Positions 3,455 to 59,141 of a DNA stretch of 64,000 nt are shown piece after piece; within the stretch, counting starts at the first letter, position 1; each line of letters opens with the position of its first letter. This stretch comes from a virus, in the IMG/VR virus record IMGVR_UViG_3300046819_000377, positions 3,802-67,801 of that record. The stretch is one strand, 5' to 3'. Position numbers and translations under genes: made by a program. Under the pieces are notes generated by a model that saw only the letters and a program-made list of their open reading frames with translations, was not told the DNA's origin and ran no database searches.

Positions 3455-4123
3455 ATGACAACTTATACAACAACAAAATCAAATGCAATGACACGTGTTT
3501 ATCGCAACATGGCTTTATCGGTATTCACTACCATGGTAGTAGCGTATATCGTTAGCCAAAGTCCAACATTAACTGCATTCTTTTTAACTGGCCCAATGAA
3601 ATGGGTAGTGCTATTAGTACCACTGGCAATGGTTTTTGTTTTCCATGCAGTTTTGCAATCAACCGAATCGCCAATTGTGGCCCACAGTCTATTACAGATC
3701 TTTTCAGCAACATTTGGTATTAGCTTGTCGGTGATCTTTCATCAGTATAGTGCTGGGTTGATTACCAGTGCGTTCTTGGGTGCAACGGTATTGTTTACCA
3801 CTATGGCAATTTACGGGATGACTACTAAACGAGATTTAACATCGATTGGTGCCTTCTTGATGGTTGGATTAATTTCTTTAATTATTGTTAGTGTTATCAA
3901 TCTATTCATTGGTAATTCATTATTAGATTTGACATTATCTGGGATTGGTGTTATCATCTTCTTGGGCTTTACCGCATATGATGCACAAAACATTCAAGAA
4001 ATGGTTAACTATGAAAGTAATACCAATCTTGAAGTAATGGGCGCTTTGTCATTGTATCTTGACTTTGTAAATCTGTTTCTGGATTTACTGAGATTATTTG
4101 GTGCTTTAGCATCCGACGATTAA
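3455..4123 (+). CDS. Bax inhibitor-1 / YccA family inner-membrane protein
   Basis: Seven hydrophobic segments. C-terminal signature ..DAQNIQEM..NLEVMGALSLYLDFVNLFLDLLRLFG is typical of BI-1/YccA (PF01027). Confidence 0.7.
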   Translation: MTTYTTTKSNAMTRVYRNMALSVFTTMVVAYIVSQSPTLTAFFLTGPMKWVVLLVPLAMVFVFHAVLQSTESPIVAHSLLQIFSATFGISLSVIFHQYSAGLITSAFLGATVLFTTMAIYGMTTKRDLTSIGAFLMVGLISLIIVSVINLFIGNSLLDLTLSGIGVIIFLGFTAYDAQNIQEMVNYESNTNLEVMGALSLYLDFVNLFLDLLRLFGALASDD

Positions 4124-14859: not shown

Positions 14860-14940
14860 ATGTTTTGGCTTTCATTTTTATTTGCAACAATCATCGTTGC
14901 ATCCATTAGTTATCAAATTGAAAAAAGAGTAAAAAAATGA
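14860..14940 (+). CDS. small hydrophobic peptide (26 aa), translationally coupled to AAA ATPase
   Basis: MFWLSFLFATIIVASISYQIEKRVKK. Its TGA overlaps ATG 14937 (ATGA). SD aaggaaatgg. Confidence 0.3.
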   Translation: MFWLSFLFATIIVASISYQIEKRVKK

Positions 14941-16268
14941 CATATATTCAAGAATTAATTGCCTATATCAATTCAATGACATCAGGTAACCAAATGGTTG
15001 CTGCTGCAATAAGTGCATGGATGTTGGCAGTTTTATCGTACATGCTTAAGAATATTCCTCGGACTATTATTAACTTTTTGTATAAGCAGGGTACAACTTC
15101 ATTAGAATTAGATAATGCTGGTGCTAATTTTCATTTATATTTTTCGTTCCTGGCATGGTCAGGTAAACATATGAATGAACATACCTCAAGAACAATGTTT
15201 GTACAGTCTCATAACTGGGATGCCACATCATTAGCAATCGGTCCTAGTTACGGTAATCATTTTTTCTTTTTCAAAAAACGGTTATATTGGATGACCATGA
15301 CTAAAATTGAAAATACAGGCGAAACGATTAGAAAACAAATCAAGATCACCACTTATGGACGTAGCCACAATGTATTTCATGCTTTGATTGATGAATTCAA
15401 ACCAGTAAACAAAACAACCGATACAATTTACATTCATAACTGGGATGGCAAAGGTTGGGAAAATCGTGTTGAACTTCACAAACGCCCATTATCATCAGTT
15501 GTACTGAACAAAACAGTTAAAAATAACGTAACCGCTGCAATAGAAAAATTTTATGCTGATAAACAATGGTATACTGAAAATGGTATCCCATATAAACTGG
15601 GTATCCTGTTACATGGTAACCCAGGCTGTGGTAAAACTAGTCTGGTAAAAGCATTGGCTAGTCATTACAATAGATCTATCTACGTTATTAATATCAATGC
15701 AATGTCTGATAGAACACTTGAATCAGCTATTTCCAAATCAGAAAAAGGCTCATTTATTTTGATCGAAGATTTTGATTCATCGAAAGCAGTTACCAAAAGA
15801 CAACGGGTTCAGGAATCTGTTGATAAAGCAAATGGTGAAGAAAAATCTGATCCAGGTAAACAACTGATCATCGATAACCCAATGGGTGAGTATGAGATGT
15901 TAAGTTTGACTGGTGTATTAAATGCAATTGATGGTGTTTCTTCTTTACACGAAAATATTATCATCATGACTACCAATGATGTTGACAAAATCGATCCAGC
16001 TGTGTTAAGATCTGGTCGATGTGATGTCAGATTGGAATTACCATACTTAACTGATCCTGAAATTCGTGAATACATCAGTATTAAGTTCCCAGATGCAAAT
16101 TTAGATGATTACACATTTAAAAATATCGCGGGTTGTGATTTACAAGCAACATTGATAGAACACAAAGATAGTAGTGATGGATTTTTATCATCACTAGAGG
16201 TAAAAGGAATTGCAAAGAAAAAGTTTCATTTCATGGAAATTGAAACAAAAATGCTTGACGTAGCTTAA
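14937..16268 (+). CDS. BCS1-like AAA+ ATPase with N-terminal membrane anchor
   Basis: TM helix AAISAWMLAVLSYML. Walker A GILLHGNPGCGKTS, Walker B FILIEDFD, arginine fingers VLRSGRCD. Linker domain typical of the Bcs1 family. Confidence 0.75.
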   Translation: MTYIQELIAYINSMTSGNQMVAAAISAWMLAVLSYMLKNIPRTIINFLYKQGTTSLELDNAGANFHLYFSFLAWSGKHMNEHTSRTMFVQSHNWDATSLAIGPSYGNHFFFFKKRLYWMTMTKIENTGETIRKQIKITTYGRSHNVFHALIDEFKPVNKTTDTIYIHNWDGKGWENRVELHKRPLSSVVLNKTVKNNVTAAIEKFYADKQWYTENGIPYKLGILLHGNPGCGKTSLVKALASHYNRSIYVININAMSDRTLESAISKSEKGSFILIEDFDSSKAVTKRQRVQESVDKANGEEKSDPGKQLIIDNPMGEYEMLSLTGVLNAIDGVSSLHENIIIMTTNDVDKIDPAVLRSGRCDVRLELPYLTDPEIREYISIKFPDANLDDYTFKNIAGCDLQATLIEHKDSSDGFLSSLEVKGIAKKKFHFMEIETKMLDVA

Positions 16269-16314: not shown

Positions 16315-17382
16315 ATGACTTATTATTTGAAATCTGGCAACACATACAAACCAAGTGCAGAAGCATCATTGGATCTTCACTACACACTGCCAGTTGGCAA
16401 TTACATTATCAAAAAAGATCCTTTCGAAAATCTATATTTCGAAAAAATTGACAATTTCGAATTTTCTGGAAAACGCTATGGTGATAACCAGAAGAATACC
16501 GATCGGATTATCGATACCTTTATGGATCGTGAAGTTTCAACTGGCGTAATGTTGACTGGTGAAAAAGGTTCTGGTAAATCATTGTTAGCAAAATGCTTAT
16601 CAATGAAAGCAGCAGAATTAAACATCCCAACTTTAATCATTAACGATCCATGGTGTGGTGACAAATTTAACCGTTTGATCCAAGAAATTCAACAACCTTG
16701 TATCGTGTTATTTGACGAGTTTGAAAAGGTATATGACCGTGATAGCCAGGAATCAATCCTGACATTACTCGACGGCGTGTTCCCAACCAAAAAATTGTTT
16801 GTATTAACTTGTAATGACAAATGGCGCGTTGACCAACATATGCGTAATCGTCCAGGTCGTATTTACTACATGTTGGACTTCAAAGGTTTGAGCATCGAGT
16901 TCATTGAAGAATATTGCAATGATAACTTGAAAAACAAATCACATATCGATAACATTTGCAAAATTTCATCATTATTTGCACAGTTCAACTTCGATATGCT
17001 GAAAGCGCTGGTTGAAGAAATGAATCGTTATGATGAATCACCACAAGAAGCATTGGCTATGTTGAATGCAAAACCTGAGTTCGACGAAGGTAACAAATTC
17101 AATGTTCAATTACAAATCAATGGTGTTACTGTTGATCCAGATGATTACTACAACGGTGACAAATGGAACGGCAATCCATTACATGGCAGATTGCAAGTTG
17201 AATATCGTACCTATAAAGATGATCCAGAAGACGGTGTTTGGGTATATGCGAATTTCACACAAACTGATTTGAAAAACGTCGATGCATCTAACGGCAAGTT
17301 TGTGTTCATGAATGAAAAAAATGAAATCATGACCTTGACCAAAGTGAAAGATTCACATTTCAATTTTCACGACGTATTTTGA
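16315..17382 (+). CDS. second AAA+ ATPase (divergent, soluble)
   Basis: Walker A GEKGSGKS, Walker B IVLFDEFEK, sensor/Arg finger MRNRPGRI. About 120-aa C-terminal extension. Confidence 0.7.
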   Translation: MTYYLKSGNTYKPSAEASLDLHYTLPVGNYIIKKDPFENLYFEKIDNFEFSGKRYGDNQKNTDRIIDTFMDREVSTGVMLTGEKGSGKSLLAKCLSMKAAELNIPTLIINDPWCGDKFNRLIQEIQQPCIVLFDEFEKVYDRDSQESILTLLDGVFPTKKLFVLTCNDKWRVDQHMRNRPGRIYYMLDFKGLSIEFIEEYCNDNLKNKSHIDNICKISSLFAQFNFDMLKALVEEMNRYDESPQEALAMLNAKPEFDEGNKFNVQLQINGVTVDPDDYYNGDKWNGNPLHGRLQVEYRTYKDDPEDGVWVYANFTQTDLKNVDASNGKFVFMNEKNEIMTLTKVKDSHFNFHDVF

Positions 17383-23108: not shown

Positions 23109-24122
23109 ATGAAAAAATATGATAATGCAGTAGTAATCATGAGAGCGCAACCACTTCACAACGCTCATTTAGAATTAATCAATAGAGCAGCAGAATTGGC
23201 AAAAAATGTCATTATCTTGCTCGGCTCATCCAAACAACCAAGAACATTTAAGAATCCATTTACATTCAGTGAACGTTGTGGGATGATCTTACGTTCAATT
23301 AACATCAAACCAGCCGTTCAGGTTTATATCGAACCATTAGTGGATATTCCTTATAATGATCAGGTTTGGGCGATCAATGTCCAACGCATTGTTGCTGAAT
23401 GTACACATGGTCAAAGTGTTTGTTTGCTTGGACATAATAAAGGTCCAGAAACCTACTACCTAAAACTATTTCCACAATGGGCTTTGGAAGAATTCGATAA
23501 TGTACAAAACCAATTGAATGCCACTGATATTCGTGAGTTGTATTTTAAAACTCCATATAACCAAGATTATATCAAAGGTGTGGTACCTGATGATACTTTA
23601 TCATTCTTAAATCAATTTCATGGAACCGATGAATACAATGCCATCCTAGATGAGAAAGAATTCATCGCCAAGTATAAACAACAATTTGCTGGTTTAGCAT
23701 ATCCTCCAGTATTTGTTACTGTGGATTGCTGTGTGATTCAATCTGGTCATGTATTAATGATTGAAAGACGATCAAATCCTGGAAAGGGTACTTTTGCCAT
23801 GCCCGGCGGCTTTCTAGATCAAAATGAACTAATCATCGATGGTGCTGTTCGTGAATTAAAAGAAGAAACTAAAATCAAAGTGCCAGTGCCAGTGTTAAAA
23901 GGCAGCATTAAAGCAAGTCATGTATTTGATCACCCAGGTAGATCATTTAGAGGTAGAACTATTACCCATGCTTTTTACATCGAATTACCAGAAGGGCCAC
24001 TTGAAAAAGTTAAAGGTGCCGATGATGCAAAAACCGCAACATGGATTCCAATATCACAATTACAAAGTGAAAATTGCTTTGAAGATCATTATTCAATTAT
24101 TCAACATTTTTTAGGAAACTAA
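23109..24122 (+). CDS. natV: bifunctional NMN adenylyltransferase / Nudix ADP-ribose pyrophosphatase (NadM-Nudix, NatV-like)
   Basis: N-terminal nucleotidyltransferase (VIMRAQPLHNAH). C-terminal Nudix box GGFLDQNELIIDGAVRELKEETKI. Confidence 0.8.
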   Translation: MKKYDNAVVIMRAQPLHNAHLELINRAAELAKNVIILLGSSKQPRTFKNPFTFSERCGMILRSINIKPAVQVYIEPLVDIPYNDQVWAINVQRIVAECTHGQSVCLLGHNKGPETYYLKLFPQWALEEFDNVQNQLNATDIRELYFKTPYNQDYIKGVVPDDTLSFLNQFHGTDEYNAILDEKEFIAKYKQQFAGLAYPPVFVTVDCCVIQSGHVLMIERRSNPGKGTFAMPGGFLDQNELIIDGAVRELKEETKIKVPVPVLKGSIKASHVFDHPGRSFRGRTITHAFYIELPEGPLEKVKGADDAKTATWIPISQLQSENCFEDHYSIIQHFLGN

Positions 24123-29339: not shown

Positions 29340-30803
29340 ATGATAGAACATCTAAAACAACAAAATTTTATCTTACAAGCCGATGCGTACAAAGCTACAC
29401 ATTGGAAGCAATTAAAAAGATCAACTAACAAATCTTACTCGGTTATCGTCCCACGCAAAGTTAGCAAATATTCGGATATCATAGTTGCAATGGGGCAATC
29501 AATGGTTGCTTCATATTTTGCATCTGTCCGTATCACCGATGAAATGATCGATGAAGCTGAATTGGAAATTACCGAACAAGGCTATGATTTCTACCGAGCT
29601 GGATGGGAATATATTGCACACGAATTAGACGGTAAATTACCATTAGCAATTTTTGGTGTTGAAGAAGGTCGTATCGTACAACCACAAACGCCTATTTTAG
29701 GCATTATTAATACCGATGACCGTTCAGCTTGGTTACCTGCATACTCGGAAACTATTGCACAAGATATTATCTGGACAATGAGTTCAGTAGCAAGTTTATC
29801 GTTAGCAATTAGAAAAACATTTGCACATTATATCGAAGAAACTGGTGCTCACATGAATCAGTTGAACACCCGTTGTCATTTCTTTGGTGATCGTGGTGGT
29901 AGTTCTCCTGAATCTGCAGTACTTACTGCCATAGCACATGCCGTAATTTTTGATGGCAGTGATTGTTTACAAGCCAATCGTTATATCAAACGTTTGTATA
30001 ACACTTCAAAAGCATATACTTCAAGTATTGTTGCCACCGAACACAGTACAATGTGTGATAATTCTGACGCAACTACCAAAGATGATTACGGTGCAGCAGT
30101 AATGGCAGTCGAATTACTGGAACAAGCAGTTGAACGCACTAAAACCCGTGGAATTGGTATTCCAATGATTAGTGCAGTTATTGACACATACGATAGTCGT
30201 AGATTTGTCAGAGATTATGTTGGTGGTCCTGAATTAAAAGAACGTGTTATCAATAGTGGTGGTACATTTGTGTTTCGTCCTGATTCTGGTGATATTACAG
30301 TAGAGCCAGGTATGGTCGGTAATGACATTGAATATGCATTTGGTGTAGAAGTCAATGAAAAAGGATACAAAGTTATCCCTTGCTATACCGCAGTATTACA
30401 AGGCGATGGTATTAAATGGAATACTTACGAAAGTGTAATTAAAGGATGGGTTGATGCTGGTTTCAGTATTGATAACTTTGCTATTGGTATGGGCGCTGGA
30501 TTATCAAATGGTACTTCAAGAGACGATTTCAGTTTCAGTATGAAAAGTATTGCAACATTTGATGGGCTGCGTTGGACTCGTAAATTAAAAGAACCAAAAA
30601 CCGATCTTGGTAAAAAATCATTATCAGGATTAGTTAGATGTCGTGAAGATGCCAATGGTAACTTGGAAGTATACGATGCTATACACGAAGGCAACGAGTA
30701 CGGTTTTATGTATCCAGGTTCTGGTTGGAAGTTATGGTTTGAAAACGGCCATAGAAAATATCGTCAATCTTTTGATGAAGTCCGTGAATGGGCTTCAAAG
30801 TAA
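29340..30803 (+). CDS. nadV: nicotinamide phosphoribosyltransferase (NAMPT / NadV)
   Basis: N-terminal ILQADAYKATHW. Full-length (487 aa) with the NAMPT signature. Confidence 0.85.
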   Translation: MIEHLKQQNFILQADAYKATHWKQLKRSTNKSYSVIVPRKVSKYSDIIVAMGQSMVASYFASVRITDEMIDEAELEITEQGYDFYRAGWEYIAHELDGKLPLAIFGVEEGRIVQPQTPILGIINTDDRSAWLPAYSETIAQDIIWTMSSVASLSLAIRKTFAHYIEETGAHMNQLNTRCHFFGDRGGSSPESAVLTAIAHAVIFDGSDCLQANRYIKRLYNTSKAYTSSIVATEHSTMCDNSDATTKDDYGAAVMAVELLEQAVERTKTRGIGIPMISAVIDTYDSRRFVRDYVGGPELKERVINSGGTFVFRPDSGDITVEPGMVGNDIEYAFGVEVNEKGYKVIPCYTAVLQGDGIKWNTYESVIKGWVDAGFSIDNFAIGMGAGLSNGTSRDDFSFSMKSIATFDGLRWTRKLKEPKTDLGKKSLSGLVRCREDANGNLEVYDAIHEGNEYGFMYPGSGWKLWFENGHRKYRQSFDEVREWASK

Positions 30804-39645: not shown

Positions 39646-40617
39646 ATGAATATTTATATTCCGTACACTTATATTATCAAATTTTTACCAACTGGTCAAG
39701 TCTATTATGGCGTTAGTTATGCTAATAGCAATAAAGTAGCCAATCCATCACAGTTATGGACTAGTTATTTTACCTCTTCCAAGATTATTCATGGATTAAT
39801 AAAGGAACATGGCATTGATGCATTCAAGTTTGAAGTTAGAAAAACCTTCGATAGCAAAGAAAAGGCTGTGTTATGGGAACATAAGATCCTTATAAAATTT
39901 GATGCCAAGAACAATCCAATATGGCTTAATCAAAACAATGGTAATAAAAAGTTCAAATCAATTCCGCACACCACTGAAACAAAATTAAAAATTTCACTCG
40001 CACATAAAGGTAAAAAACTGTCTCCTATCACAGTTGAAAAAATAAAAAATGCAAACACTGGTAAGAAACGAACACCAGAACAAAATGCTAATACATCTGC
40101 CAGACAATTGGGGACCAAAAGAGGGCCATTATCGGATGACTGTAAGAAAAAATTATCGAGTATTCTGAAAGACAGAAAATTGACATCTGACCATAAACAA
40201 AAAATATCAATCGCACTTACTGGAAAAACTGGCACATTCACTGGTAGGAATCATACACCTGAAACAAAAGCAAAAATTTCAGCAGCACATTTAGGAAAAA
40301 AGAAGAAACGCGATCCTAATAAAAATCCACCGAAAGGCGAATCTCATCCATTATACGGCAGAACAGTACCAGCGGAAATTAGACAAAAAATTGCTATGGC
40401 GCACAAAGGTAAACCAAAGACTGAAAAACAAATTCAATCAGTAATTGATCATTCTGCTAAAACTTATAGTTTAACTACACCAGCTGGTGATACTATTATA
40501 ATAACTAATATGGCCAAATTTTGTAGAGATAATGATCTATTACGAGAAAGTATGATGAAAGTAATTCATGGTCGTATGAAATCATGTAATGGATGGACAG
40601 GGAAACTCGTTGAATAA
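39646..40617 (+). CDS. GIY-YIG homing endonuclease with NUMOD3-like repeats (free-standing, antisense to neighbours)
   Basis: IYIPYTYIIKF..GQVYYGVS (GIY-YIG). Repeated H(T/K)xE(T/Q)KxKIS..GK(K/P) modules. SD GGAGGG. Confidence 0.75.
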   Translation: MNIYIPYTYIIKFLPTGQVYYGVSYANSNKVANPSQLWTSYFTSSKIIHGLIKEHGIDAFKFEVRKTFDSKEKAVLWEHKILIKFDAKNNPIWLNQNNGNKKFKSIPHTTETKLKISLAHKGKKLSPITVEKIKNANTGKKRTPEQNANTSARQLGTKRGPLSDDCKKKLSSILKDRKLTSDHKQKISIALTGKTGTFTGRNHTPETKAKISAAHLGKKKKRDPNKNPPKGESHPLYGRTVPAEIRQKIAMAHKGKPKTEKQIQSVIDHSAKTYSLTTPAGDTIIITNMAKFCRDNDLLRESMMKVIHGRMKSCNGWTGKLVE

Positions 40618-44367: not shown

Positions 44368-44669
44368 CGTAATGCAAACCAGTTCTTATCTTCTTCACTT
44401 TTTATAAGTATTCTAGCAGGAGTTCCCTCATATGGACTAGTCCAACACCATCTTTCATTGACTATTGGCTTGTTATGAATCATTAACTCCATGAATTCAT
44501 TTAATGAGCAACTAGGACCAAATGTTTCCCAACACCATTGACGCATTTCACAGAATTTTGCTGTTCGATCACCTTGTTGCCAAGAAGGTTGCCATCTGAA
44601 AACCATGCTGTATTTGAAGTATTGATGACCGGTGTATCGCTTGTCTAACTTTGATATCGCTATATTCAT
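44358..44669 (-). CDS. W-family small protein (ends EEDKNWFALRWG*)
   Basis: C-terminal motif. First gene of the minus-strand block. Confidence 0.6.
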   Translation of the reverse strand: MNIAISKLDKRYTGHQYFKYSMVFRWQPSWQQGDRTAKFCEMRQWCWETFGPSCSLNEFMELMIHNKPIVNERWCWTSPYEGTPARILIKSEEDKNWFALRWG

Positions 44670-44727
44670 GTATGAATTATACTCCTTCTTATGGTGGATG
44701 TCAATAAATAATTACAGAGGCATACAA

Positions 44728-45540
44728 ATGAGAATACTAGTCACCGGTGCCAACGGATTTGTTGGACGTAATATGCTCGAATGGCTATCCCAAGAAGAAT
44801 TCTGGGAAATCGAGACATGGGAATGGGATCCTAATAATTTACCTGATGTAAAAAAATATAAATGGGTCATACATCTGGGTGCTGTTACAGATACCAGTGA
44901 TGCTGACGTTGATACGATTATACATAAGAACTATGAGTTCAGTCAATGGCTTTTTACTGAATGCAATAAGAATAAAGTGCATATGCAATATGCCAGTTCC
45001 AGCGCTGTTTATGGAAATAATAAGAATTTTTCGGAATTTGCTCCTTGTCATCCAGAAACACCATATGCGTGGTCGAAATACTTATTTGATAGATGGGTAT
45101 TGCAGCAAGAGCATAACATCTATGTTCAAGGATTTCGATACTTCAACGTGTATGGAAAATATATGCATACCAAAGGAGAACGAGCTGATATCTTATGTAA
45201 GTGGCGAGAAGAGGCCAAAAATGAAGGAAAGATCACTATTTGGGCAAATGCTGATCGCATCAAACGTGATTGGGTTTGGGTCGGAGACGTATGCAAATTA
45301 CATATTGATTTCATTAAAACTATCAATGGTTCAGGCATCTGGAATGTTGGCTCTGGACTATCACACAGTTATTTAGATTTAGCGGAAGAAATTGCAATTC
45401 AAGAAGGGGTACAAATTGAATTTGCCTCACCAAAACCAACTGAACAATATAATACAAAAGCCGACTTAACCTTATTGAAATCAACTATCGGAAAACGCAA
45501 ATGGTTATCAGTTTACGAATGGATTGATCGTGGATTGTGA
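44728..45540 (+). CDS. NAD(P)-dependent epimerase/dehydratase (SDR family)
   Basis: MRILVTGANGFVGRN Rossmann motif. YAWSK active-site YxxxK. Confidence 0.7.
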   Translation: MRILVTGANGFVGRNMLEWLSQEEFWEIETWEWDPNNLPDVKKYKWVIHLGAVTDTSDADVDTIIHKNYEFSQWLFTECNKNKVHMQYASSSAVYGNNKNFSEFAPCHPETPYAWSKYLFDRWVLQQEHNIYVQGFRYFNVYGKYMHTKGERADILCKWREEAKNEGKITIWANADRIKRDWVWVGDVCKLHIDFIKTINGSGIWNVGSGLSHSYLDLAEEIAIQEGVQIEFASPKPTEQYNTKADLTLLKSTIGKRKWLSVYEWIDRGL

Positions 45541-47308: not shown

Positions 47309-47320
47309 TTAAATAACTTT

Positions 47321-47902
47321 ATGAATTTAATAGGTAATTTAATTATATCCCCGCCATCAGTAAAAGGCAATTTCTGGTATAAAACAGTCGCAATGATTGT
47401 TGAACATCATAATCAAGGAAGTATTGGTATAGTTCTTAATAAACGAAGTAACTATACTATAAATGAATTAGGTGATCAACTTGATTTAGATTTTGATATA
47501 CCAGGATATGTCTATATAGGTGGTCCAGTCAATCCGAATAGTATTAGTTTAATTCATTCTAATGAATGGAGTTGCGATAATACACTTCGGCTTAATGAAA
47601 ACTTCTCATTAAGCTCATCAAAAGAAATCATGCGACGATTTTCTAATAATGACTTACCAAAAAAGTGGAGGTTATTTTTTGGAATTTGTGGATGGCCACC
47701 TGGTAAACTACATAAAGAAATTAATGGCATTGAACCAGAAGATAAGAACACTAGTTGGTGTTTTACCAATAGCGACACAGATTTAGTGTTTAATCATGAC
47801 ACCAAAGTACAATGGAATAAAGCATTAGAAAAAGCCGCAGCTGAATTCGCACATAACATCTTGCCAGTAAAAATAGATAATTGTTTTAAAAACATTAAAT
47901 AG
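47321..47902 (+). CDS. YqgE/AlgH family protein (UPF0301)
   Basis: GNLIISPPSV..NFWYKTVAMIVEHHNQGSIGIVLNKRS..YIGGPV..GICGWPPGKLHKEI matches the AlgH family pattern. Confidence 0.55.
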   Translation: MNLIGNLIISPPSVKGNFWYKTVAMIVEHHNQGSIGIVLNKRSNYTINELGDQLDLDFDIPGYVYIGGPVNPNSISLIHSNEWSCDNTLRLNENFSLSSSKEIMRRFSNNDLPKKWRLFFGICGWPPGKLHKEINGIEPEDKNTSWCFTNSDTDLVFNHDTKVQWNKALEKAAAEFAHNILPVKIDNCFKNIK

Positions 47903-47925: not shown

Positions 47926-48741
47926 ATGAAATATATTTTATTATTACTCGCTGCAGGTTTTACACTTTCAGCAGAAGCCTGGGACCAAGTTGCCCCATAT
48001 CCAATTGAAAAATGCCAAGTACAATCACCGTATGGCTTTCCACAAACTTCTAAACAAGGTGTAGCAATATGTCGTGCTGGTTATGTTACATTAAACGATA
48101 CTACTGCAAAATTACCAGTTTGGGTTTCTTATACATTATATCCTGAATATGCGTTAGGATGTGTTCCACGTTCTAATGGCTTTGCCCCCGATCAAAGCTT
48201 ACCAAAAGGTAGTAGGGCAGAGCTAATCGATTTTAAAGGCAGCGGCTATGATATTGGTCACGTAGTACCCAATGCAGATCAATCAAGGTTCGATCAAACA
48301 GAAAAAGAAAGTTTCTTATTAACTAATATGGTGGCTCAATTACCAGGAACTAATAGAGGAATAATTAAATTGACCGAAACTAATATTCGTGGATGGGTAA
48401 CACAGAGAAATCATCCATATGTAATTTATTCTGGTCCATTATATGGACCAGGTGATAAAACTATTGGTTTAAACCAAATAGTCGTTCCTCATGCATTTTA
48501 TAAAATAGTAATTGACACAACAACTAATGAAGTTGCTGGATTTCTAATACCACATGTCGGAAATCAAGGAAATGACTTGACAAAAGTTAGAGCACCAATT
48601 GATCAAATCCAACAATTATCAGGAGTCCAATTTGCATACCCAGCGAATGCGGTTGAATTACCATTAAATTATTTATGGCCTGTTGATTATAAAGCATTAA
48701 CCGAAGCGAAAAGAGCTGCATGCAAAGGCAACGCTAACTAA
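47926..48741 (+). CDS. secreted DNA/RNA non-specific endonuclease (Endonuclease I / NucA-like)
   Basis: Signal peptide MKYILLLLAAGFTLSAEA. GYDIGHVVPNADQS (DRGH-type motif). LPGTNRG..RGW. Confidence 0.6.
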   Translation: MKYILLLLAAGFTLSAEAWDQVAPYPIEKCQVQSPYGFPQTSKQGVAICRAGYVTLNDTTAKLPVWVSYTLYPEYALGCVPRSNGFAPDQSLPKGSRAELIDFKGSGYDIGHVVPNADQSRFDQTEKESFLLTNMVAQLPGTNRGIIKLTETNIRGWVTQRNHPYVIYSGPLYGPGDKTIGLNQIVVPHAFYKIVIDTTTNEVAGFLIPHVGNQGNDLTKVRAPIDQIQQLSGVQFAYPANAVELPLNYLWPVDYKALTEAKRAACKGNAN

Positions 48742-49709
48742 CCAGGTTTATATTTACAATTATCAAAATGCCAGCGTTTTGCGTTCGATGCATTGCTGGC
48801 ATTACCACAATACGGACAAATCAATATTTCCTGTGGTGTTAGTTTTTTGCCCTTTCTTGACAAACTCATTTTCAATTTAGATTCTTCGGTATGTGTTCTA
48901 CCGGCCATGGCCCCTACTTTTCCATACATTGGGTTATTTTCACCAGTGTTAGCTTCACTCAGTTTTTCCTTGAGCTCTTTTGCTCGTTCTACCCCGTATA
49001 TTTCATCGAAGGTCTTTCCTTTACGCAATGCAATCGTTTCCGGAGAATGTTTCTTACCCGTAAAAGTACCAGGTTTTCCATATCTATGATTTTTATCACC
49101 TAACATTTTTATACGTTTTTTCTCAGATATTTCTTTAGCCTTTTCTTCACCGAATATTTCATTATAACTTCTCCCTAACCTAGATGTTTTGTGAATAATC
49201 TTCATCGGTTTTAATGATTCTTTATAAATCCATGTCTTTTTTAATTTATTGATTTTTTCTAATGCTTTTTCTTCCCCATATAATTCAATATATGTTTTTC
49301 CCTTATTATTTGATAGTTGACCTTTATTTCGTATACTAATCATTTGTTTTTGCTTATCGGTCCATAATCTTCCTAATGTACCATCCCCACCGAGGGTCAT
49401 ATTGTATCCAGAATGGTAACTATCATATAAATTGATAAAATATGTCTCCATTGCATTTTTTAAATAATCCCCTTCTAACGATTGATATATTATTTCAAAG
49501 GTAAATTTATCGATGCCATACTTTTTAATAGCATAGTATAAATGCGAATTTAGTTTTCTTGAGTTTCTAGTATGTTCTACGATCCTTCTTTCAAAGTTAT
49601 TTGTAAAACCTATATAAATTTTCTCATTAATTGTATTTGTAATTTTATAAATGGAATAAATATCCATGTTGATACTCCTTTTCAGTATTAAAGTAGATGG
49701 GAACGCCAA
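48738..49709 (-). CDS. GIY-YIG homing endonuclease with NUMOD3 repeats and C-terminal Zn finger
   Basis: YSIYKITNTINEKIYIGFTNNFERRIVEH. NPMYGK. CPYCGNASNASNAKRWHFDNCK. Confidence 0.75.
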   Translation of the reverse strand: MAFPSTLILKRSINMDIYSIYKITNTINEKIYIGFTNNFERRIVEHTRNSRKLNSHLYYAIKKYGIDKFTFEIIYQSLEGDYLKNAMETYFINLYDSYHSGYNMTLGGDGTLGRLWTDKQKQMISIRNKGQLSNNKGKTYIELYGEEKALEKINKLKKTWIYKESLKPMKIIHKTSRLGRSYNEIFGEEKAKEISEKKRIKMLGDKNHRYGKPGTFTGKKHSPETIALRKGKTFDEIYGVERAKELKEKLSEANTGENNPMYGKVGAMAGRTHTEESKLKMSLSRKGKKLTPQEILICPYCGNASNASNAKRWHFDNCKYKPG

Positions 49710-49811
49710 TTCCGCGATCTACACCATTATTTATAAATATTACTATGAAAATATTATACTACATTTATTACGTATTGTCAAAATTTGGATGTGGATTGGA
49801 AGGAATCCTGT

Positions 49812-50042: not shown

Positions 50043-50327
50043 ATGGCATTACAAATTAATATTAATACTGAATTCGGTACTGAAGAATCACCAGTATATG
50101 CTCAATATTGGAATATTGGCGCAGTACAAGAGGATTTCAAAGGAAAGGGCACTGAAATCACTATCTATGGATATGCATCCAAAGAAGCAAGAGATAATGA
50201 AAAACAACCACTATCTGCCGGAAAATTTCAAATAACTGGTGAAGAATATGTTGCTGGTGCAGATCGTGCAACATTATATGAAATCATCAAGCAACGCCCA
50301 GAATTCACTGGTGCAGAAGACTGCTAA
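50043..50327 (+). CDS. hypothetical protein (94 aa)
   Basis: ORF track. Confidence 0.5.
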   Translation: MALQININTEFGTEESPVYAQYWNIGAVQEDFKGKGTEITIYGYASKEARDNEKQPLSAGKFQITGEEYVAGADRATLYEIIKQRPEFTGAEDC

Positions 50328-50339
50328 CCAGTCATACTC

Positions 50340-50364
50340 GATATCCCTAATTGTTAGGGATATC
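50340..50364. promoter_or_regulatory. perfect palindrome GATATCCCTAA-ttg-TTAGGGATATC between convergent genes
   Basis: 11-bp arms with a 3-nt loop. Weak T-run, so it may be a terminator or a protein-binding site. Confidence 0.4.
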
Positions 50365-50429: not shown

Positions 50430-51617
50430 TTACAAAATTGATTTTAATGCATCGATTAAATCTTCAATCATTCCATCATCATGAAACGGAGTTGGTGCAA
50501 ATCGCAATCGTTCAGTGCCAACATCTACTGTTGGAGAATTAATTGCTTGTACGTAAATACTATAATCATTTAATAATCTATCACTAATTTCTCTAGCTCT
50601 TTTAGCATCACCAATCAAAACAGGTACGATATGTGTAACTGAATCCATCACTGGTATTCCCGCTTCCTTCATCATTTTTTTTAATTTACTAGCTCGTTCT
50701 TGGTGTTTTTCTCTTAATTCATTATGAGCTTTTGAATATTTAACTGCAGCTAATGCGCCAGCGACAATAACTGGGCTCAATGACGTACTAAAGATGAATC
50801 CATCCGCGATGCTTCGAATAGCATCAATTACTATAGAATCCCCTGCGATATAACCACCTTGTACACCAAATGCTTTGCCAAGCGTACCATTAACAATATC
50901 AACTCGATCTTGCAAATCCATTTCTTCTAACTCACCAGCACCAGTAAATCCTCTAACTCCTACTGCATGAACTTCATCACAGTATGTAATAGCATTATAT
51001 TTGTCAGCTAAATCACAAATTTCTTTAATAGGACTAATATCACCTTCCATACTGTATATGCTTTCAAATACAATACAGGGAATATTTTCATTTTGAACCG
51101 ATTTCTTCAAACAATTTTCCAACTCTACTAAATCATTATGATTGAATATTTGTTTAGATGCACGACTATGAACAATACCCATTATTAGACTATTATGGTT
51201 TTTGCTATCACTTATAAATTCAATATTTGGGATAATTTTAGCCAATGCTATTAAACTTGACGTATTCGCTACATAAGCCGAAGTAAATAATAATGCACTC
51301 TCTTTTTTATGCAATGATGCCAATTCATGTTCTAATGCAACATGATAATGGGTAGTACCTGATATATTTCTCGTACCACCGGATCCAGCACCTGTCATAT
51401 CTAATGCTGTTCGCATTGCATCTAGTACTACTTTATGCTGTCCAAGTGATAGATAATCATTACTACACCAATTGACAATATTTTTAATGGCATATGGCCC
51501 ATACCAGATTGCATTTGGAAATTTACCTTGTTCTCGTAGTATGTCATTGAAAACTCTATACTTTCCAGTTTCTTTTAAATTATCGATAAGTTTATTAAAT
51601 GGTTCTTTGTTAATCAT
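50430..51617 (-). CDS. hemA: 5-aminolevulinate synthase (ALAS, PLP-dependent alpha-oxoamine synthase)
   Basis: [18 protein letters not shown] (ALAS hallmark). [14 protein letters not shown] (PLP lysine). [10 protein letters not shown]. Confidence 0.75.
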
Positions 51618-51654
51618 ACCGATATTTAACTAAATATACAAAAGGAAAAAAATT

Positions 51655-51867
51655 ATGGCAGAAAATGGTATTTCAACACACATCCCAAAATCCGAACGTA
51701 GAGATTTAAAATTAGAATTGGCTGAATTAAAACGTCAAGGTAAACTTATTAATACTGATGCAGTTGATATTACTAAAATTGGTTATAGACCATATAATGT
51801 TTATAATAGCCCAGGAACAGTTAGTCCAGCTACAGGACATCCATGGGAATTAGGTCCAGAGGTTTAA
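51655..51867 (+). CDS. hypothetical protein (70 aa)
   Basis: SD AAGGAAA. Confidence 0.5.
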   Translation: MAENGISTHIPKSERRDLKLELAELKRQGKLINTDAVDITKIGYRPYNVYNSPGTVSPATGHPWELGPEV

Positions 51868-51868
51868 G

Positions 51869-53470
51869 ATGACATATATACATCCAAATGATAATAATTT
51901 AAAAAATCTGCATAAAGCTATGCAATATAATGAGTCTGGTGAACCAGTTGTTCGCACACATGTTGATGGAATATCATTACAAGGCGATGTTATAGTTGAT
52001 AAGGTTAGAATTCAAATCGATACATTAGGGAATGTATGGGGTGAAAATCATTCTGCACCAGTATCAATCGGTACTAATGGTCAAGTAACATTAAAAACGA
52101 GTTCAGCAGTTATAGGAAAAGTTCAGCAAGATGGTGATTGGACTGTTAAACAAGGTACTACCCCTTGGGCAATTAGTGATAATGGTGGTTCTATTACAGT
52201 AGATGGCAGTGTTTCAATTAGTAGTTTACCAGAAGTAGAAATAAAAAATGATAGTGGAAATCCTATCCCTATTTCATTTTCAACTGGTGCCCTAGATGCA
52301 TTCGGTAGACAAAGAATTTCAGAACCTTTTACTTTAGGTGATTATAAGCACTTATATGGTATCGACCCCGCTTTTATTGATTATGCTGAAAATGGTGGTG
52401 CCATTGAATTTGTAAAAAATAAAGCATGTTGTACATTAACCACTACTTCTAATCCATCTAGTTTTATCATCCATCAAACAAAATTTTATCATCATTATAT
52501 GCCTGGTAAATCTCAAGTAATTTTTAGTAGTATAAATTTTGGAGCAGCTACACCGAACGTAGTTAAACGAACTGGATACTTTGATGACAACGATGGAATT
52601 TATTTCGAACAAGCAGGCGATGGGACTTTATCATGGGTAATAAGAAGTTTTGTTTCTGGCGCTCCCATTGAAGTCAGGAAAACTCAATCACAATGGAATT
52701 TAGATACTGTATCATGGTTGAACATACTTAATACACAATTAGTAGCGATTGATTTCCAGTGGCTGGGCGTTGGTAGAATTAGAGTTGGATTCGCACATAA
52801 TGGTATTGTAGTTTATGTTCATGAATTTTTACATAGCAATAATTTACCAACTGTTTACATGAGTAATCCAAATCTTCCAATTAGATGTGAAATAAGAAAT
52901 ATTGGCACAACTACGGGTGGATCTATGGATCAAATATGTTCAACTGTTTTCAGCGAAGGTGGTTATGTTGAAGCGGGACAGGATTGGGCTGCTACTACAC
53001 CTACATTAAAAGTGATAGATGCTGGAATTACTGCGCCAGTTATGGCAATTAGATTAAAAAATACATTTCATACATATTCAAATAGAATGATTGTTCGTAT
53101 GGGTAATTTGAATATATTCAGTGATGGTGATAATATTAAATGGAGACTGATAAAATTACCAGCACAAGCATTTCTAACAGGTAATTCATGGGTAGATGTG
53201 CACAATGATTCAGGTATTCAATACAACGTAACTGCTACCGCATGGACAGATGGGCAAGAAATGGATAGTGGTTTTGTGGGTGCATCAACGCAAGGTAGTC
53301 AAAAAGCCGGTGGAGCGCCAGCAAGTAATATCCCTTCATCCGCAAAGAAAAATTATATAGTACAAAATTTTGATAGCACGGATTCTGAGATATTTCTAGT
53401 AGTTGCAACTAATTTAGGTGCACAATCAACTAATGTTGGTGTTAGTATGCAATGGCGTGAAATCTATTAA
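51869..53470 (+). CDS. putative virion structural protein (533 aa)
   Basis: Large beta-rich protein at the head of the structural/fibre module. No motif recognised. Confidence 0.6.
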   Translation: MTYIHPNDNNLKNLHKAMQYNESGEPVVRTHVDGISLQGDVIVDKVRIQIDTLGNVWGENHSAPVSIGTNGQVTLKTSSAVIGKVQQDGDWTVKQGTTPWAISDNGGSITVDGSVSISSLPEVEIKNDSGNPIPISFSTGALDAFGRQRISEPFTLGDYKHLYGIDPAFIDYAENGGAIEFVKNKACCTLTTTSNPSSFIIHQTKFYHHYMPGKSQVIFSSINFGAATPNVVKRTGYFDDNDGIYFEQAGDGTLSWVIRSFVSGAPIEVRKTQSQWNLDTVSWLNILNTQLVAIDFQWLGVGRIRVGFAHNGIVVYVHEFLHSNNLPTVYMSNPNLPIRCEIRNIGTTTGGSMDQICSTVFSEGGYVEAGQDWAATTPTLKVIDAGITAPVMAIRLKNTFHTYSNRMIVRMGNLNIFSDGDNIKWRLIKLPAQAFLTGNSWVDVHNDSGIQYNVTATAWTDGQEMDSGFVGASTQGSQKAGGAPASNIPSSAKKNYIVQNFDSTDSEIFLVVATNLGAQSTNVGVSMQWREIY

Positions 53471-57764: not shown

Positions 57765-59141
57765 ATGGCATCTGTCAATAAGTATTTTGGTAATATTATT
57801 CGTTCATCTAAAATATCAATAAGTAAATTCAAAACATCAGGGATATTTAATATCAAAGATAACTATATCCAACGATTATCAGATCTATGGCCTAATGAAG
57901 GTGTATGGTGTGCATTTAAATCATCAATAACCACTAGCAGTAATACCTACATGTCAGGTGCAAATACATTGCACGTTTGTTCTGATGGTAGTATTTATGC
58001 TACCTATACAACTGTTGTAACTGAAAGGGAATCATATATGGTTAAACACTCACCAAGTGGGACCGTATTATGGCAGGAAAAATTCCCTAGCCGTGAAAAA
58101 ACAATTGATTCATGCATTGACTCATCCGATAATTGCTATGTTATGTCTGATTTTAATCAATCAGGGTATTATAACTATGTATTTATTTCTAAATATTCAT
58201 CAAATGGTACAATGCTATGGCGGAGATATATTTCTAGTTCATCATCAGATGTTAATTCTGTTAATTGTTTTATTGGAACTGATGGTTACCTATATGCATC
58301 TGTTAAAAAATATAGTAATACTACCGGGGTGTGTTACATTATCAATACTGATGGTGGTTTGATTTCTAAAAATAATATACCGTATGGCGGGGTAGTATTT
58401 CAAAACAACTCTGGGACTTTTTATGTTTCATCATATTGGAACTCAACGCAATCTGTTTATAAATTTGGAAATTCATTATCCGGTCAATACACTTCAGCAA
58501 TAGCTATATCAGGCCCATCTGGTGGTTATATTGGGTTGAATAATAAACCAACAGTTGATTCATCTGGGATAATATATCTACATGGTTCATATTGTACAAC
58601 TACCAGTACTACGAAACCATTAGGGGTTACTGTTAGACTCAATTCATCAGTTTCTTGGCTTTCTACAACAACATTTTCTGATCCAGGATCTACTTACATT
58701 GGAAACGGATGTAGTACAAATAATTCTGTTATTTCTGGAAATTACATTTATACAATCAGCAGTGAATATACTCCATATAGTTATGTGCATTGCTATAATA
58801 TTTCTAATTTTTCAGTGGTATGGGTTATGCGCTTGAGTGGTAATAGTACAAATTTTCCACCGGATCTGTTGGAAAAAGACAATAAAGGCAACATATATCT
58901 GTATCATGGATATTATGCAATGAAACTTCTTCCTGATCTCTATTTCGTTGGTTCTTATACACTTTACGATAAAACTATATCAATTATTAAAAAAACCGAT
59001 CTATCATATGCAGGACCAAGTATTACTCTGGCGGCTGCTTCATACACAATAACTACCAATACTGATGCGGATCTTTATTTTTATAACGCATCTGCATCTA
59101 GCACTAATAGTAATTTAACATTTTATAATATAATTATATAA
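57765..59141 (+). CDS. Ser/Thr/Tyr-rich repeat structural protein (beta-propeller-like)
   Basis: Repeated xxDGxxY / SSxxN blocks. 458 aa. Confidence 0.55.
   Translation: MASVNKYFGNIIRSSKISISKFKTSGIFNIKDNYIQRLSDLWPNEGVWCAFKSSITTSSNTYMSGANTLHVCSDGSIYATYTTVVTERESYMVKHSPSGTVLWQEKFPSREKTIDSCIDSSDNCYVMSDFNQSGYYNYVFISKYSSNGTMLWRRYISSSSSDVNSVNCFIGTDGYLYASVKKYSNTTGVCYIINTDGGLISKNNIPYGGVVFQNNSGTFYVSSYWNSTQSVYKFGNSLSGQYTSAIAISGPSGGYIGLNNKPTVDSSGIIYLHGSYCTTTSTTKPLGVTVRLNSSVSWLSTTTFSDPGSTYIGNGCSTNNSVISGNYIYTISSEYTPYSYVHCYNISNFSVVWVMRLSGNSTNFPPDLLEKDNKGNIYLYHGYYAMKLLPDLYFVGSYTLYDKTISIIKKTDLSYAGPSITLAAASYTITTNTDADLYFYNASASSTNSNLTFYNIII

Follow-up and report, generated by a model that had tools for sequence, protein, structure and literature searches.

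Large freshwater phages were reported to carry 5-aminolevulinate synthase (ALAS) among their metabolic genes (Chen et al. 2020), and viral ALAS (vAlaS) genes, termed valaS, were described in marine and freshwater phage contigs by Wegner et al. (Nat Commun 2024; 15:8783; preprint 2023). The vAlaS of phage CB_2 complements an E. coli auxotroph for 5-aminolevulinate (ALA) and converts glycine and succinyl-CoA to ALA, and its K250A mutant is inactive (Wegner et al. 2024). CB_2 is a 527-kb pmoC phage with Methylocystis as its proposed host; for valaS phages in general, both alpha- and gammaproteobacterial hosts have been proposed (Wegner et al. 2024). Many vAlaS proteins lack the ligands for haem feedback, and native promoters were not discussed in that study. 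An estuary study of 2026 treated viral alaS as a marker auxiliary metabolic gene (AMG) and detected its transcripts in situ. Here, we describe a valaS gene in a 64,000-nt stretch of viral DNA (IMG/VR record IMGVR_UViG_3300046819_000377, positions 3,802 to 67,801; hereafter the window), where it occupies positions 50430-51617 of the minus strand as a 395-aa open reading frame (ORF) with an ATG start. Judged from its sequence, the gene is an intact, bona fide phage-encoded ALAS and not KBL or AONS, and we are confident that it is a functional AMG of a jumbo-sized aquatic myovirus-like phage of about 367 kb and a member of the vAlaS family.

The ALAS (EC 2.3.1.37) equivalog model of NCBIfam, TIGR01821, matches the predicted protein at 562.4 bits against a cut-off of 338.55, whereas two KBL models (316.5 against 460 and 257.8 against 493 bits) and the BioF model (312.6 against 426.45 bits) remain under their cut-offs; Pfam assigns only the generic Aminotran_1_2 domain. 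In a sequence search of the PDB, the five best matches were all ALAS (E 1e-128 to 1e-106), led by the enzymes of R. palustris (7x98, E 1e-128) and R. capsulatus (2bwn, E 1e-123) and then those of human and yeast, with KBL following at 1e-62. The solved ALAS are 50-52% identical to the protein, as compared to about 30-35% for KBL and BioF. An AlphaFold2 monomer model reached a mean pLDDT of 69 and was poor at residues 18-90, as expected of a monomer built from a shallow alignment; its top 30 Foldseek matches in the PDB were all ALAS (TM 0.77-0.80), with KBL, BioF, and serine palmitoyltransferase behind. Among clade members with unsaturated dS, pairwise Nei-Gojobori estimates of dN/dS were 0.09-0.12. 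The first-pass annotation, made from the sequence alone, had called the gene ALAS, and this was borne out; the ORF and the quoted motifs, including NGTLGKAF with K248 as the lysine for pyridoxal phosphate (PLP), were confirmed exactly. It had also considered that full-length alignment might favour KBL or AONS, an objection that fails, because the best full-length homologues are ALAS and the paralogue models fall under their cut-offs.

Aligned to R. capsulatus ALAS, the protein has all 16 catalytic and substrate-binding residues, and these are kept in all 81 members of its clade, with an S/T exchange at one position. The PLP residues are K248, H141, D214, H217, T245, S277, and T278 (K248, H142, D214, H217, T245, S277, and T278 in R. 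capsulatus), the glycine contacts are N53, S189, and R372 (N54, S189, and R374), the succinyl-CoA contacts are R21, T82, N84, I85, and K155 (R21, T83, N85, I86, and K156), and the loop residue is T363 (T365). Some observations weigh against the reading of this gene as a functional ALAS. The window protein deviates at the otherwise conserved positions 57, 191, 213, and 222, where it and its near-identical copies have LSLGQH for LGMGQH, SMEGD for SMDGD, YCDEVH for YIDEVH, and VGVRG for VGLYG; the AlphaFold model is of moderate quality only; and CB_2, the sole viral ALAS with shown activity, is just 57.4% identical to the window protein.

The sites for haem feedback are different. The haem-ligand His (H342 in R. 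capsulatus, H340 in Caulobacter) is R340 in the window protein, and the position holds R or K in 80 of the 81 clade members. With its last residue at 395, the protein also stops short of the C-terminal ligand Cys (C400 in R. capsulatus), which is mostly kept in the marine vAlaS clade. With Arg in place of His and an end before the Cys, the enzyme probably escapes haem feedback, and both features fit the published suggestion of a feedback-insensitive vAlaS. A viral adaptation is less easily argued from the missing His, which is present at the ligand position in merely 11 of the 82 nearest bacterial ALAS listed; its loss is therefore not virus-specific, which weakens that interpretation and makes the case for freedom from feedback a weak one.

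The relationships of the protein were evaluated with neighbour-joining trees only. Cellular ALAS were taken from a scan of 185,579 species genomes, and the statements on them below hold among the matches listed, from which Pelagibacterales ALAS may be missing; published vAlaS sequences were reconstructed from the supplementary files of Wegner et al. (2024). The viral set comprised 96 sequences (the window, 80 from IMG/VR, 8 published marine, and 7 published freshwater), placed opposite about 82 alphaproteobacterial ALAS. All 96 are monophyletic with respect to the bacterial ALAS (bootstrap 49/49 for the 89-sequence set, on a tree of 170 sequences), the group of window and IMG/VR sequences is split from the marine group (bootstrap 49/49), and three GROS21 sequences nest inside the window's clade. 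The cellular ALAS are all alphaproteobacterial (Sphingomonadales, Caulobacterales, Parvularculales, Rhodospirillales, and others), and the 81 compared are 52-58% identical to the window protein. The search for a donor lineage suggested by the first-pass annotation led to the viral ALAS, with which the protein groups, and to these more distant alphaproteobacterial relatives.

The valaS gene has a GC content of 33.6% and a GC at third codon positions (GC3) of 18.7%, which are phage-like values, the window being at 35.1% GC. From the viral monophyly, the 52-58% identity to cellular ALAS, and this composition, it follows that the gene is an old acquisition that has evolved since within phages; it is compositionally ameliorated. 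For an old monophyletic viral clade that reaches at most 58% identity to the listed cellular ALAS, alphaproteobacterial ancestry is no reliable guide to the host. The alphaproteobacterial host that had been hinted at from the presence of ALAS is therefore not supported, and the donor lineage of valaS is not usable for inferring the host. Considering the 406 contigs that encode valaS relatives in IMG/VR, the age of the clade, the strong purifying selection, and the fixed position of the gene, we regard valaS as a long-standing core accessory gene of these phages and not as a sporadic capture.

The best 80 of these 406 relatives are 72-99% identical to the window protein, and IMG names such proteins 5-aminolevulinate synthase. 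Isolate phages are another matter: in INPHARED we found no DNA match to the window and no ALAS by tblastn, which returned KBL/BioF-like matches only, at 27-36% identity, mostly representing bacterial contamination or transduced DNA. Since the family was published and biochemically validated in 2024, the window adds a member and no new kind of gene; its valaS is a further member of a validated viral family, about 76% identical to the nearest published sequence. The view of the gene as an unusual AMG for a phage is accordingly out of date, ALAS having been listed in 2020, characterised in 2024, and used as a marker AMG in 2026, with 406 relatives in IMG/VR. The AMG that was recognised from raw sequence is real and non-obvious; the biological addition is small. 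Beyond the published literature, what is possibly new is solely the conserved bidirectional promoter-like element and the start without a Shine-Dalgarno (SD) sequence.

Of 44 loci of the marine clade, 31 have HemO and 34 PcyX; valaS is there the last gene of a co-directional hemO-pcyX-valaS operon, and its start overlaps the pcyX stop codon (TAATG). The window valaS is solitary and lies outside any such cassette, as far as the window and about 35 kb beyond it are concerned. With queries that were positive in marine loci, tblastn gave no hemO or pcyX anywhere in the 64 kb of the window (best E 0.2). On contigs sharing 98-100% identity with the window, the search was extended to about 35 kb past valaS on its 5' side, again without a match, and all 81 loci of the window's clade lack both genes in the 10 kb around valaS. 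Together, these searches of the window phage reached 50 kb away from valaS in one direction and about 35 kb in the opposite direction, out of about 367 kb. A scan of IMG/VR for close relatives of HemO gave no contig of the window phage and no DNA overlap with it among the matches listed. On five contigs of the window's clade, hemO does occur, at a distance of 26-30 kb from valaS on its 5' side. In freshwater-type phages (IMG/VR contigs L388-L467, including some of 278-357 kb), hemO and a pcyX-like reductase gene are adjacent in 75 of 80 loci, and in no case does valaS lie within 10 kb of the two genes, unlike in the marine three-gene operon. The Pfam families listed for window ORFs of at least 100 aa (25 of 31) include no haem oxygenase, bilin reductase, or other tetrapyrrole family (hemB-H, cob, bch). 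The question of whether further haem genes exist elsewhere in the genome is thereby answered in part: hemO and pcyX were found neither in the window nor in the 35 kb on the 5' side, and five clade contigs have hemO.

valaS is separated from the divergently oriented gene starting at 51655 by 37 bp, which include an inverted repeat, TATTTA-AC-TAAATA (TATTTAACTAAATA, 51623-51636), which presents a TAAATA on both strands, that is, two putative back-to-back promoter cores. The minus-strand TAAATA ends 5 nt ahead of the valaS ATG, which has no SD, and the plus-strand TAAATA (51631-51636) lies 18 nt ahead of the ATG at 51655, where an AAGGA SD is present. Of 47 distinct regions upstream of viral valaS, 39 have TATTTA-N(1-6)-TAAATA, as opposed to none of the 79 regions upstream of bacterial ALAS genes. 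In the viral loci, the palindrome lies 4-10 nt from the valaS ATG (modes 7 and 5), and SD-like sequences precede just 5 of the 47 valaS genes as compared to 53 of the 79 bacterial ALAS genes. On the opposite side, 36 of the 38 loci with the motif have a divergent ORF that starts 17-20 nt (mode 19) past the mirrored TAAATA. The genes concerned differ among loci and range from 70 to more than 500 aa, and 34 of the 36 have a GGAG/GAGGA SD. About 0.4 occurrences of the palindrome motif are expected per window by chance and three were observed, among which only the one at 51623-51636 is intergenic.

TAAATA as such is under-represented in the window (84 observed, about 141 expected), and TATAAATA still more so (3 observed, about 12.6 expected). 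Before other genes of the window, TAAATA occurs in two layouts, either 17-24 nt ahead of the start with an SD or 4-5 nt ahead with little leader; the second layout is shared by five genes including valaS, where about 0.2 would be expected. The other four genes with this layout are on the plus strand, with hexamers at 47310, 53474, 59152, and 61005 and starts at 47321, 53485, 59162, and 61016. The full T4 late consensus, TATAAATA, is present exactly 5 nt ahead of the ATG in two solitary marine valaS loci.

T4 late promoters carry TATAAATA at about -13 to -6, initiate transcription about 6 nt downstream, and use a gp55-type sigma factor. On the basis of this layout and the geometry of the motif, we read the palindrome as a pair of back-to-back late-type promoter cores; the valaS mRNA would then be leaderless or near-leaderless, and the gene would be co-regulated with the structural genes. 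Several points speak against this interpretation. Two of the four other genes with TAAATA at 4-5 nt have AGGA just upstream, so that TAAATA may be an SD spacer there; TAAATA accounts for no more than 6 of 8 positions in the T4 late consensus; and the promoter assignment of the palindrome is based on sequence pattern alone. We therefore put forward only tentatively, as a possibility somewhat short of an even chance, the full proposal that in this clade of freshwater jumbo phages valaS was uncoupled from hemO-pcyX and became a stand-alone gene, transcribed into a leaderless or near-leaderless mRNA from one half of a T4-late-type promoter that works in both directions. If it is true, ALA synthesis would be switched on together with the late (virion) genes and translated without an SD, which would show when in infection the extra tetrapyrrole precursor is needed, an expression logic undescribed for the valaS AMG. 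The palindrome and the missing SD thus provide a hypothesis on both the timing and the mode of valaS expression. Other promoter types were considered for valaS and rejected: a sigma-70-type promoter would be a weak 9/12 match only, and a Bacteroidota-type promoter (TAnnTTTG) misfits most loci, with the neighbouring phage genes having clear SD sequences. Rfam gave no RNA family in the 49.5-52 kb section of the window.

At the other end of the gene, the 102-bp gap between the convergent stop codons contains a perfect palindrome at 50340-50364, with 11-bp arms and a 3-nt loop (GATATCCCTAA/TTG/TTAGGGATATC). The hairpin is stable, and the region folds with a z score of -4.6. The hairpin is not followed by a T-run, which is why it was not called by the terminator scan. 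The same stem, or one longer by 1 bp, occurs only in the nearest relatives (L002 and L005). Across the clade, a perfect stem of at least 7 bp is present downstream of valaS in 8 of 52 distinct loci, the sequences being unrelated, and two regions have textbook intrinsic terminators. For this reason the hairpin is not counted among the conserved features of the valaS unit; the best interpretation is a local hairpin at the transcript ends of the two convergent genes, probably acting in both directions, and it is not a mobility signature. The perfect palindrome that the first-pass annotation had described as flanking the gene does exist, on one side only and in the nearest relatives only.

Among the alternatives concerning the nature and the source of the gene, we consider it extremely improbable that the protein is another alpha-oxoamine synthase (KBL, AONS/BioF, serine palmitoyltransferase, or a CqsA-like enzyme) which merely resembles ALAS. 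The Pfam domain, Aminotran_1_2, is the same as in those enzymes, the KBL and BioF models match the protein at E 1e-94 and 1e-93, and the isolate-phage records have KBL/BioF-like matches only (27-36% identity). However, such similarity falls short of the family cut-offs (316 against 460 bits for KBL, 313 against 426 for BioF), while the ALAS score is 224 bits over its own; conservation extends to the residues for the succinyl-CoA carboxylate (R21, T83, N85, and I86) as well as to the N-terminal YRVF region, and identity is higher to solved ALAS (50-52%) than to KBL or BioF (about 30-35%). An origin in host alphaproteobacterial DNA, through recent capture, an assembly chimera, or a mis-binned fragment, would agree with the fact that ALAS is otherwise typical of alphaproteobacteria, to which all of the 80 nearest listed cellular matches belong, and with one published sequence of a "Rhodobacteraceae bin" that clusters with the viral ALAS. 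We give this explanation equally little credence: the best listed cellular ALAS is merely 58% identical, the viral clade is monophyletic with hundreds of members, and the gene keeps its position and antisense orientation on contigs whose phage neighbours have diverged to 30-60% identity. Both GC and GC3 are phage-like, and the promoter-like motif separates viral loci (39/47) from bacterial ones (0/79). A protein identical to the window vAlaS is encoded on a 367,267-bp JGI contig, and IMG/VR lists contigs with 98-100% identity to the window as viral. It is very unlikely that valaS stems from bacterial contamination or a chimera.

Two other explanations concern the role and the control of the gene, and both are unlikely, the second a little more so. 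valaS might mainly feed a phage bilin pathway (hemO with pcyX or pcyA) and not the general haem supply, as the tight hemO-pcyX-valaS operon of the marine relatives (31-34 of 44 loci), the hemO located 26-30 kb from valaS on five contigs of the window's clade, and the adjacent hemO-pcyX pair of freshwater phages (75 of 80 loci) would suggest. The window itself offers no such partner: hemO and pcyX are absent from its 64 kb (best tblastn E 0.2), from about 35 kb on the 5' side, and from the 10 kb around valaS in 81 clade loci, valaS has a promoter-like unit of its own, and several host enzymes would still be required to proceed from ALA to haem. The upstream palindrome might instead be an operator for a dimeric regulator, such as a repressor that responds to iron or haem, or else a small RNA hairpin, given that it is a true inverted repeat with a spacer varying from 1 to 6 nt and that iron and haem classically regulate cellular ALAS genes. 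The same variable spacer suits two independent half-elements better than a dimer site, and each half is rigidly spaced from a start codon, by 4-10 nt towards valaS and by 17-20 nt towards the opposite gene, which has an SD. TAAATA also precedes other window genes in both layouts despite its overall scarcity (84 against about 141), the solitary marine valaS genes have the full TATAAATA 5 nt ahead of the ATG, and a hairpin is disfavoured by the missing Rfam match and by the very weak stem of 6 A/U-only base pairs. A pair of late-type promoter cores is the reading of the upstream palindrome that we prefer.

5-Aminolevulinate is the committed precursor of haem, cobalamin, and other tetrapyrroles. 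As a PLP-dependent homodimeric alpha-oxoamine synthase, the enzyme is predicted to produce ALA by condensing glycine and succinyl-CoA, with release of CoA and CO2, and expression of valaS in the infected cell would establish a one-enzyme ALA route independent of the host, by which the tetrapyrrole supply may be kept or raised while host gene expression is off. In a host with the C5 pathway, valaS would also bypass glutamyl-tRNA. The enzyme would probably be free of haem feedback (R340, no C-terminal Cys), and its gene would be driven by its own half of the compact bidirectional promoter-like palindrome at the border of the structural block, on an mRNA that is probably leaderless or near-leaderless. 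We infer in this way both the benefit to the phage and the timing of valaS expression.

The surroundings of valaS are those of a phage. The window encodes virion structural proteins, a baseplate hub, a Gp23-family match, and head-decoration-like proteins, and no tRNA was found in its 64 kb. The divergent 70-aa gene at 51655-51867 (plus strand) is the first gene of the virion structural block and is followed by the gene of a 533-aa virion structural protein at 51869-53470 (phrog_1645, E 5e-100), which matches cyanomyoviruses and the SAR116 phage HMO-2011 at 32-51% identity. On the other side, the stop codon of a 94-aa gene (50043-50327, plus strand, phrog_5084) faces that of valaS, and a GIY-YIG/NUMOD3 homing endonuclease is encoded at 48738-49709 on the minus strand, with two small plus-strand genes between it and valaS. 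The first-pass annotation had valaS standing alone on the minus strand. Its two immediate neighbours do lie antisense to it, an arrangement kept across related viral contigs, but the endonuclease gene is on the minus strand as well. The position of valaS is constant in the clade: the virion structural block borders it on one side, and a 193-aa gene and a nuclease gene border it on the other. Position and orientation are kept on contigs with neighbour-protein identities of 28-100%, including contigs on which these proteins have diverged to 30-70%. The GIY-YIG endonuclease occurs beside valaS in the closest relatives only (L001-L007, with 45% identity in L020 and L022), so that it is a recent mobile insertion. 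Just 5' of it, a perfect sigma-70 consensus, TTGACA-17-TATAAT (12/12), is present at 49753-49781 on the minus strand, and the 64 kb contain at least three GIY-YIG/NUMOD3 homing-endonuclease ORFs, for example at 39646-40617 on the plus strand (NUMOD3 x3; phrog_314 x3).

Further observations were made in the window and on contigs near-identical to it. A second AMG module consists of an NAD+ salvage pair, NAMPT and a cytidylyltransferase-like/NUDIX (NMNAT-Nudix) protein, encoded by the ORFs at 29340-30803 and 23109-24122 (both plus strand). Two adjacent AAA ATPases are encoded at 14937-16268 and 16315-17382 (both plus strand), the first of which has a BCS1 N-terminal domain; this BCS1-like protein is 34-39% identical to proteins of large or jumbo phages (142-360 kb; Salmonella phage Munch, Pseudomonas phage Noxifer, and others). 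Among ORFs of at least 100 aa, we found cellular-type domains that are odd for a phage, namely Bax1-I (E 1e-52), NADAR (6e-47), and AlgH-like DUF179 (1e-30), as well as SPFH/Band_7, a 4HBT thioesterase, and an NAD-dependent epimerase (44632-45540). A secreted-looking Endonuclease_NS is encoded at 47926-48741, and DUF6745 is present in four ORFs. In the middle of the structural block, a 458-aa ORF (57765-59141, plus strand) had no Pfam, PHROG, or INPHARED tblastn match. GC rises to 48% at 62-64 kb, where a giant collagen-like fibre ORF (from about 61.5 kb) runs off the window; it consists of G-X-Y repeats (GATGPAGIDG…, GASGIQG…), extends to at least 2522 aa in contig L288, and is followed by three paralogous genes of about 390-430 aa (…LDAANPKS…). 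This ORF differs by about 5 kb among contigs that are otherwise 98-100% identical (L287 and L288), through either repeat collapse in the assembly or real variation. About 45 kb past valaS on near-identical contigs (L298, 16600-19927), the class Ia ribonucleotide reductase alpha subunit is split into ORFs of 509, 258, and 319 aa, and the 319-aa C-terminal piece (…CESCKL) is about 80% identical over several hundred IMG/VR contigs. A separate search for contigs encoding the valaS protein gave one 12-kb Logan contig, which was without useful Pfam annotation.

Compared with known systems, KBL and AONS (BioF) have the PLP fold-type I superfamily and the Claisen-type condensation in common with ALAS but differ in acyl-CoA specificity. 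The ALAS (HemA/AlaS) of R. capsulatus (2BWN) and R. palustris (7X98) are of the same family and fold as the window protein, with all PLP, glycine, and succinyl-CoA contacts alike, whereas R. capsulatus ALAS (52% identity) has the haem-ligand His342 where the window protein has Arg. The genes of these two enzymes are cellular, of high GC, and translated with an SD, unlike the window valaS. CB_2 likewise encodes a viral ALAS with the same catalytic residues and is a huge freshwater phage, but its protein is 57% identical and belongs to another subclade.

The closest published relatives are from GROS21 viral genomes of Lake Grosse Fuchskuhle (Wegner et al. 2024), in which three vAlaS proteins are 76.3, 74.7, and 73.5% identical to the window protein and a fourth is 66.8% identical. 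The genomes compared (GROS21-1_SAMEA9560823_UViG_0011, ..794_UViG_0060, and ..546_UViG_0116) provide sequences that nest within the clade of window and IMG/VR proteins; they share with the window protein the N-terminus and the lysine motif GTLGKAF, and at the haem-His site they have R (0060 and 0116) or L (0011). Their contigs are large (179-325 kb), and their valaS is outside any cassette of hemO and a ferredoxin-dependent bilin reductase gene, as in the window, although these genomes are recorded with hemO and a bilin reductase as well. Their GC is 41-42%, as compared to about 35% in the window, and identities of 73.5-76.3% indicate that the window phage is a distinct lineage. The marine pelagimyophage-type cassette (Tara, Arctic, oxygen minimum zone, and HOT contigs) carries the sister ALAS clade, which is 60.5-62% identical to the window protein, in phages with a T4-like backbone and a similarly low GC of 31-38%. 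Its proteins keep the C-terminal Cys (…KRCGKKK) before which the window protein ends. In the marine cassette, valaS is the third co-directional gene of an operon and has no palindrome, whereas the window valaS is solitary, antisense, and equipped with a promoter-like element of its own.

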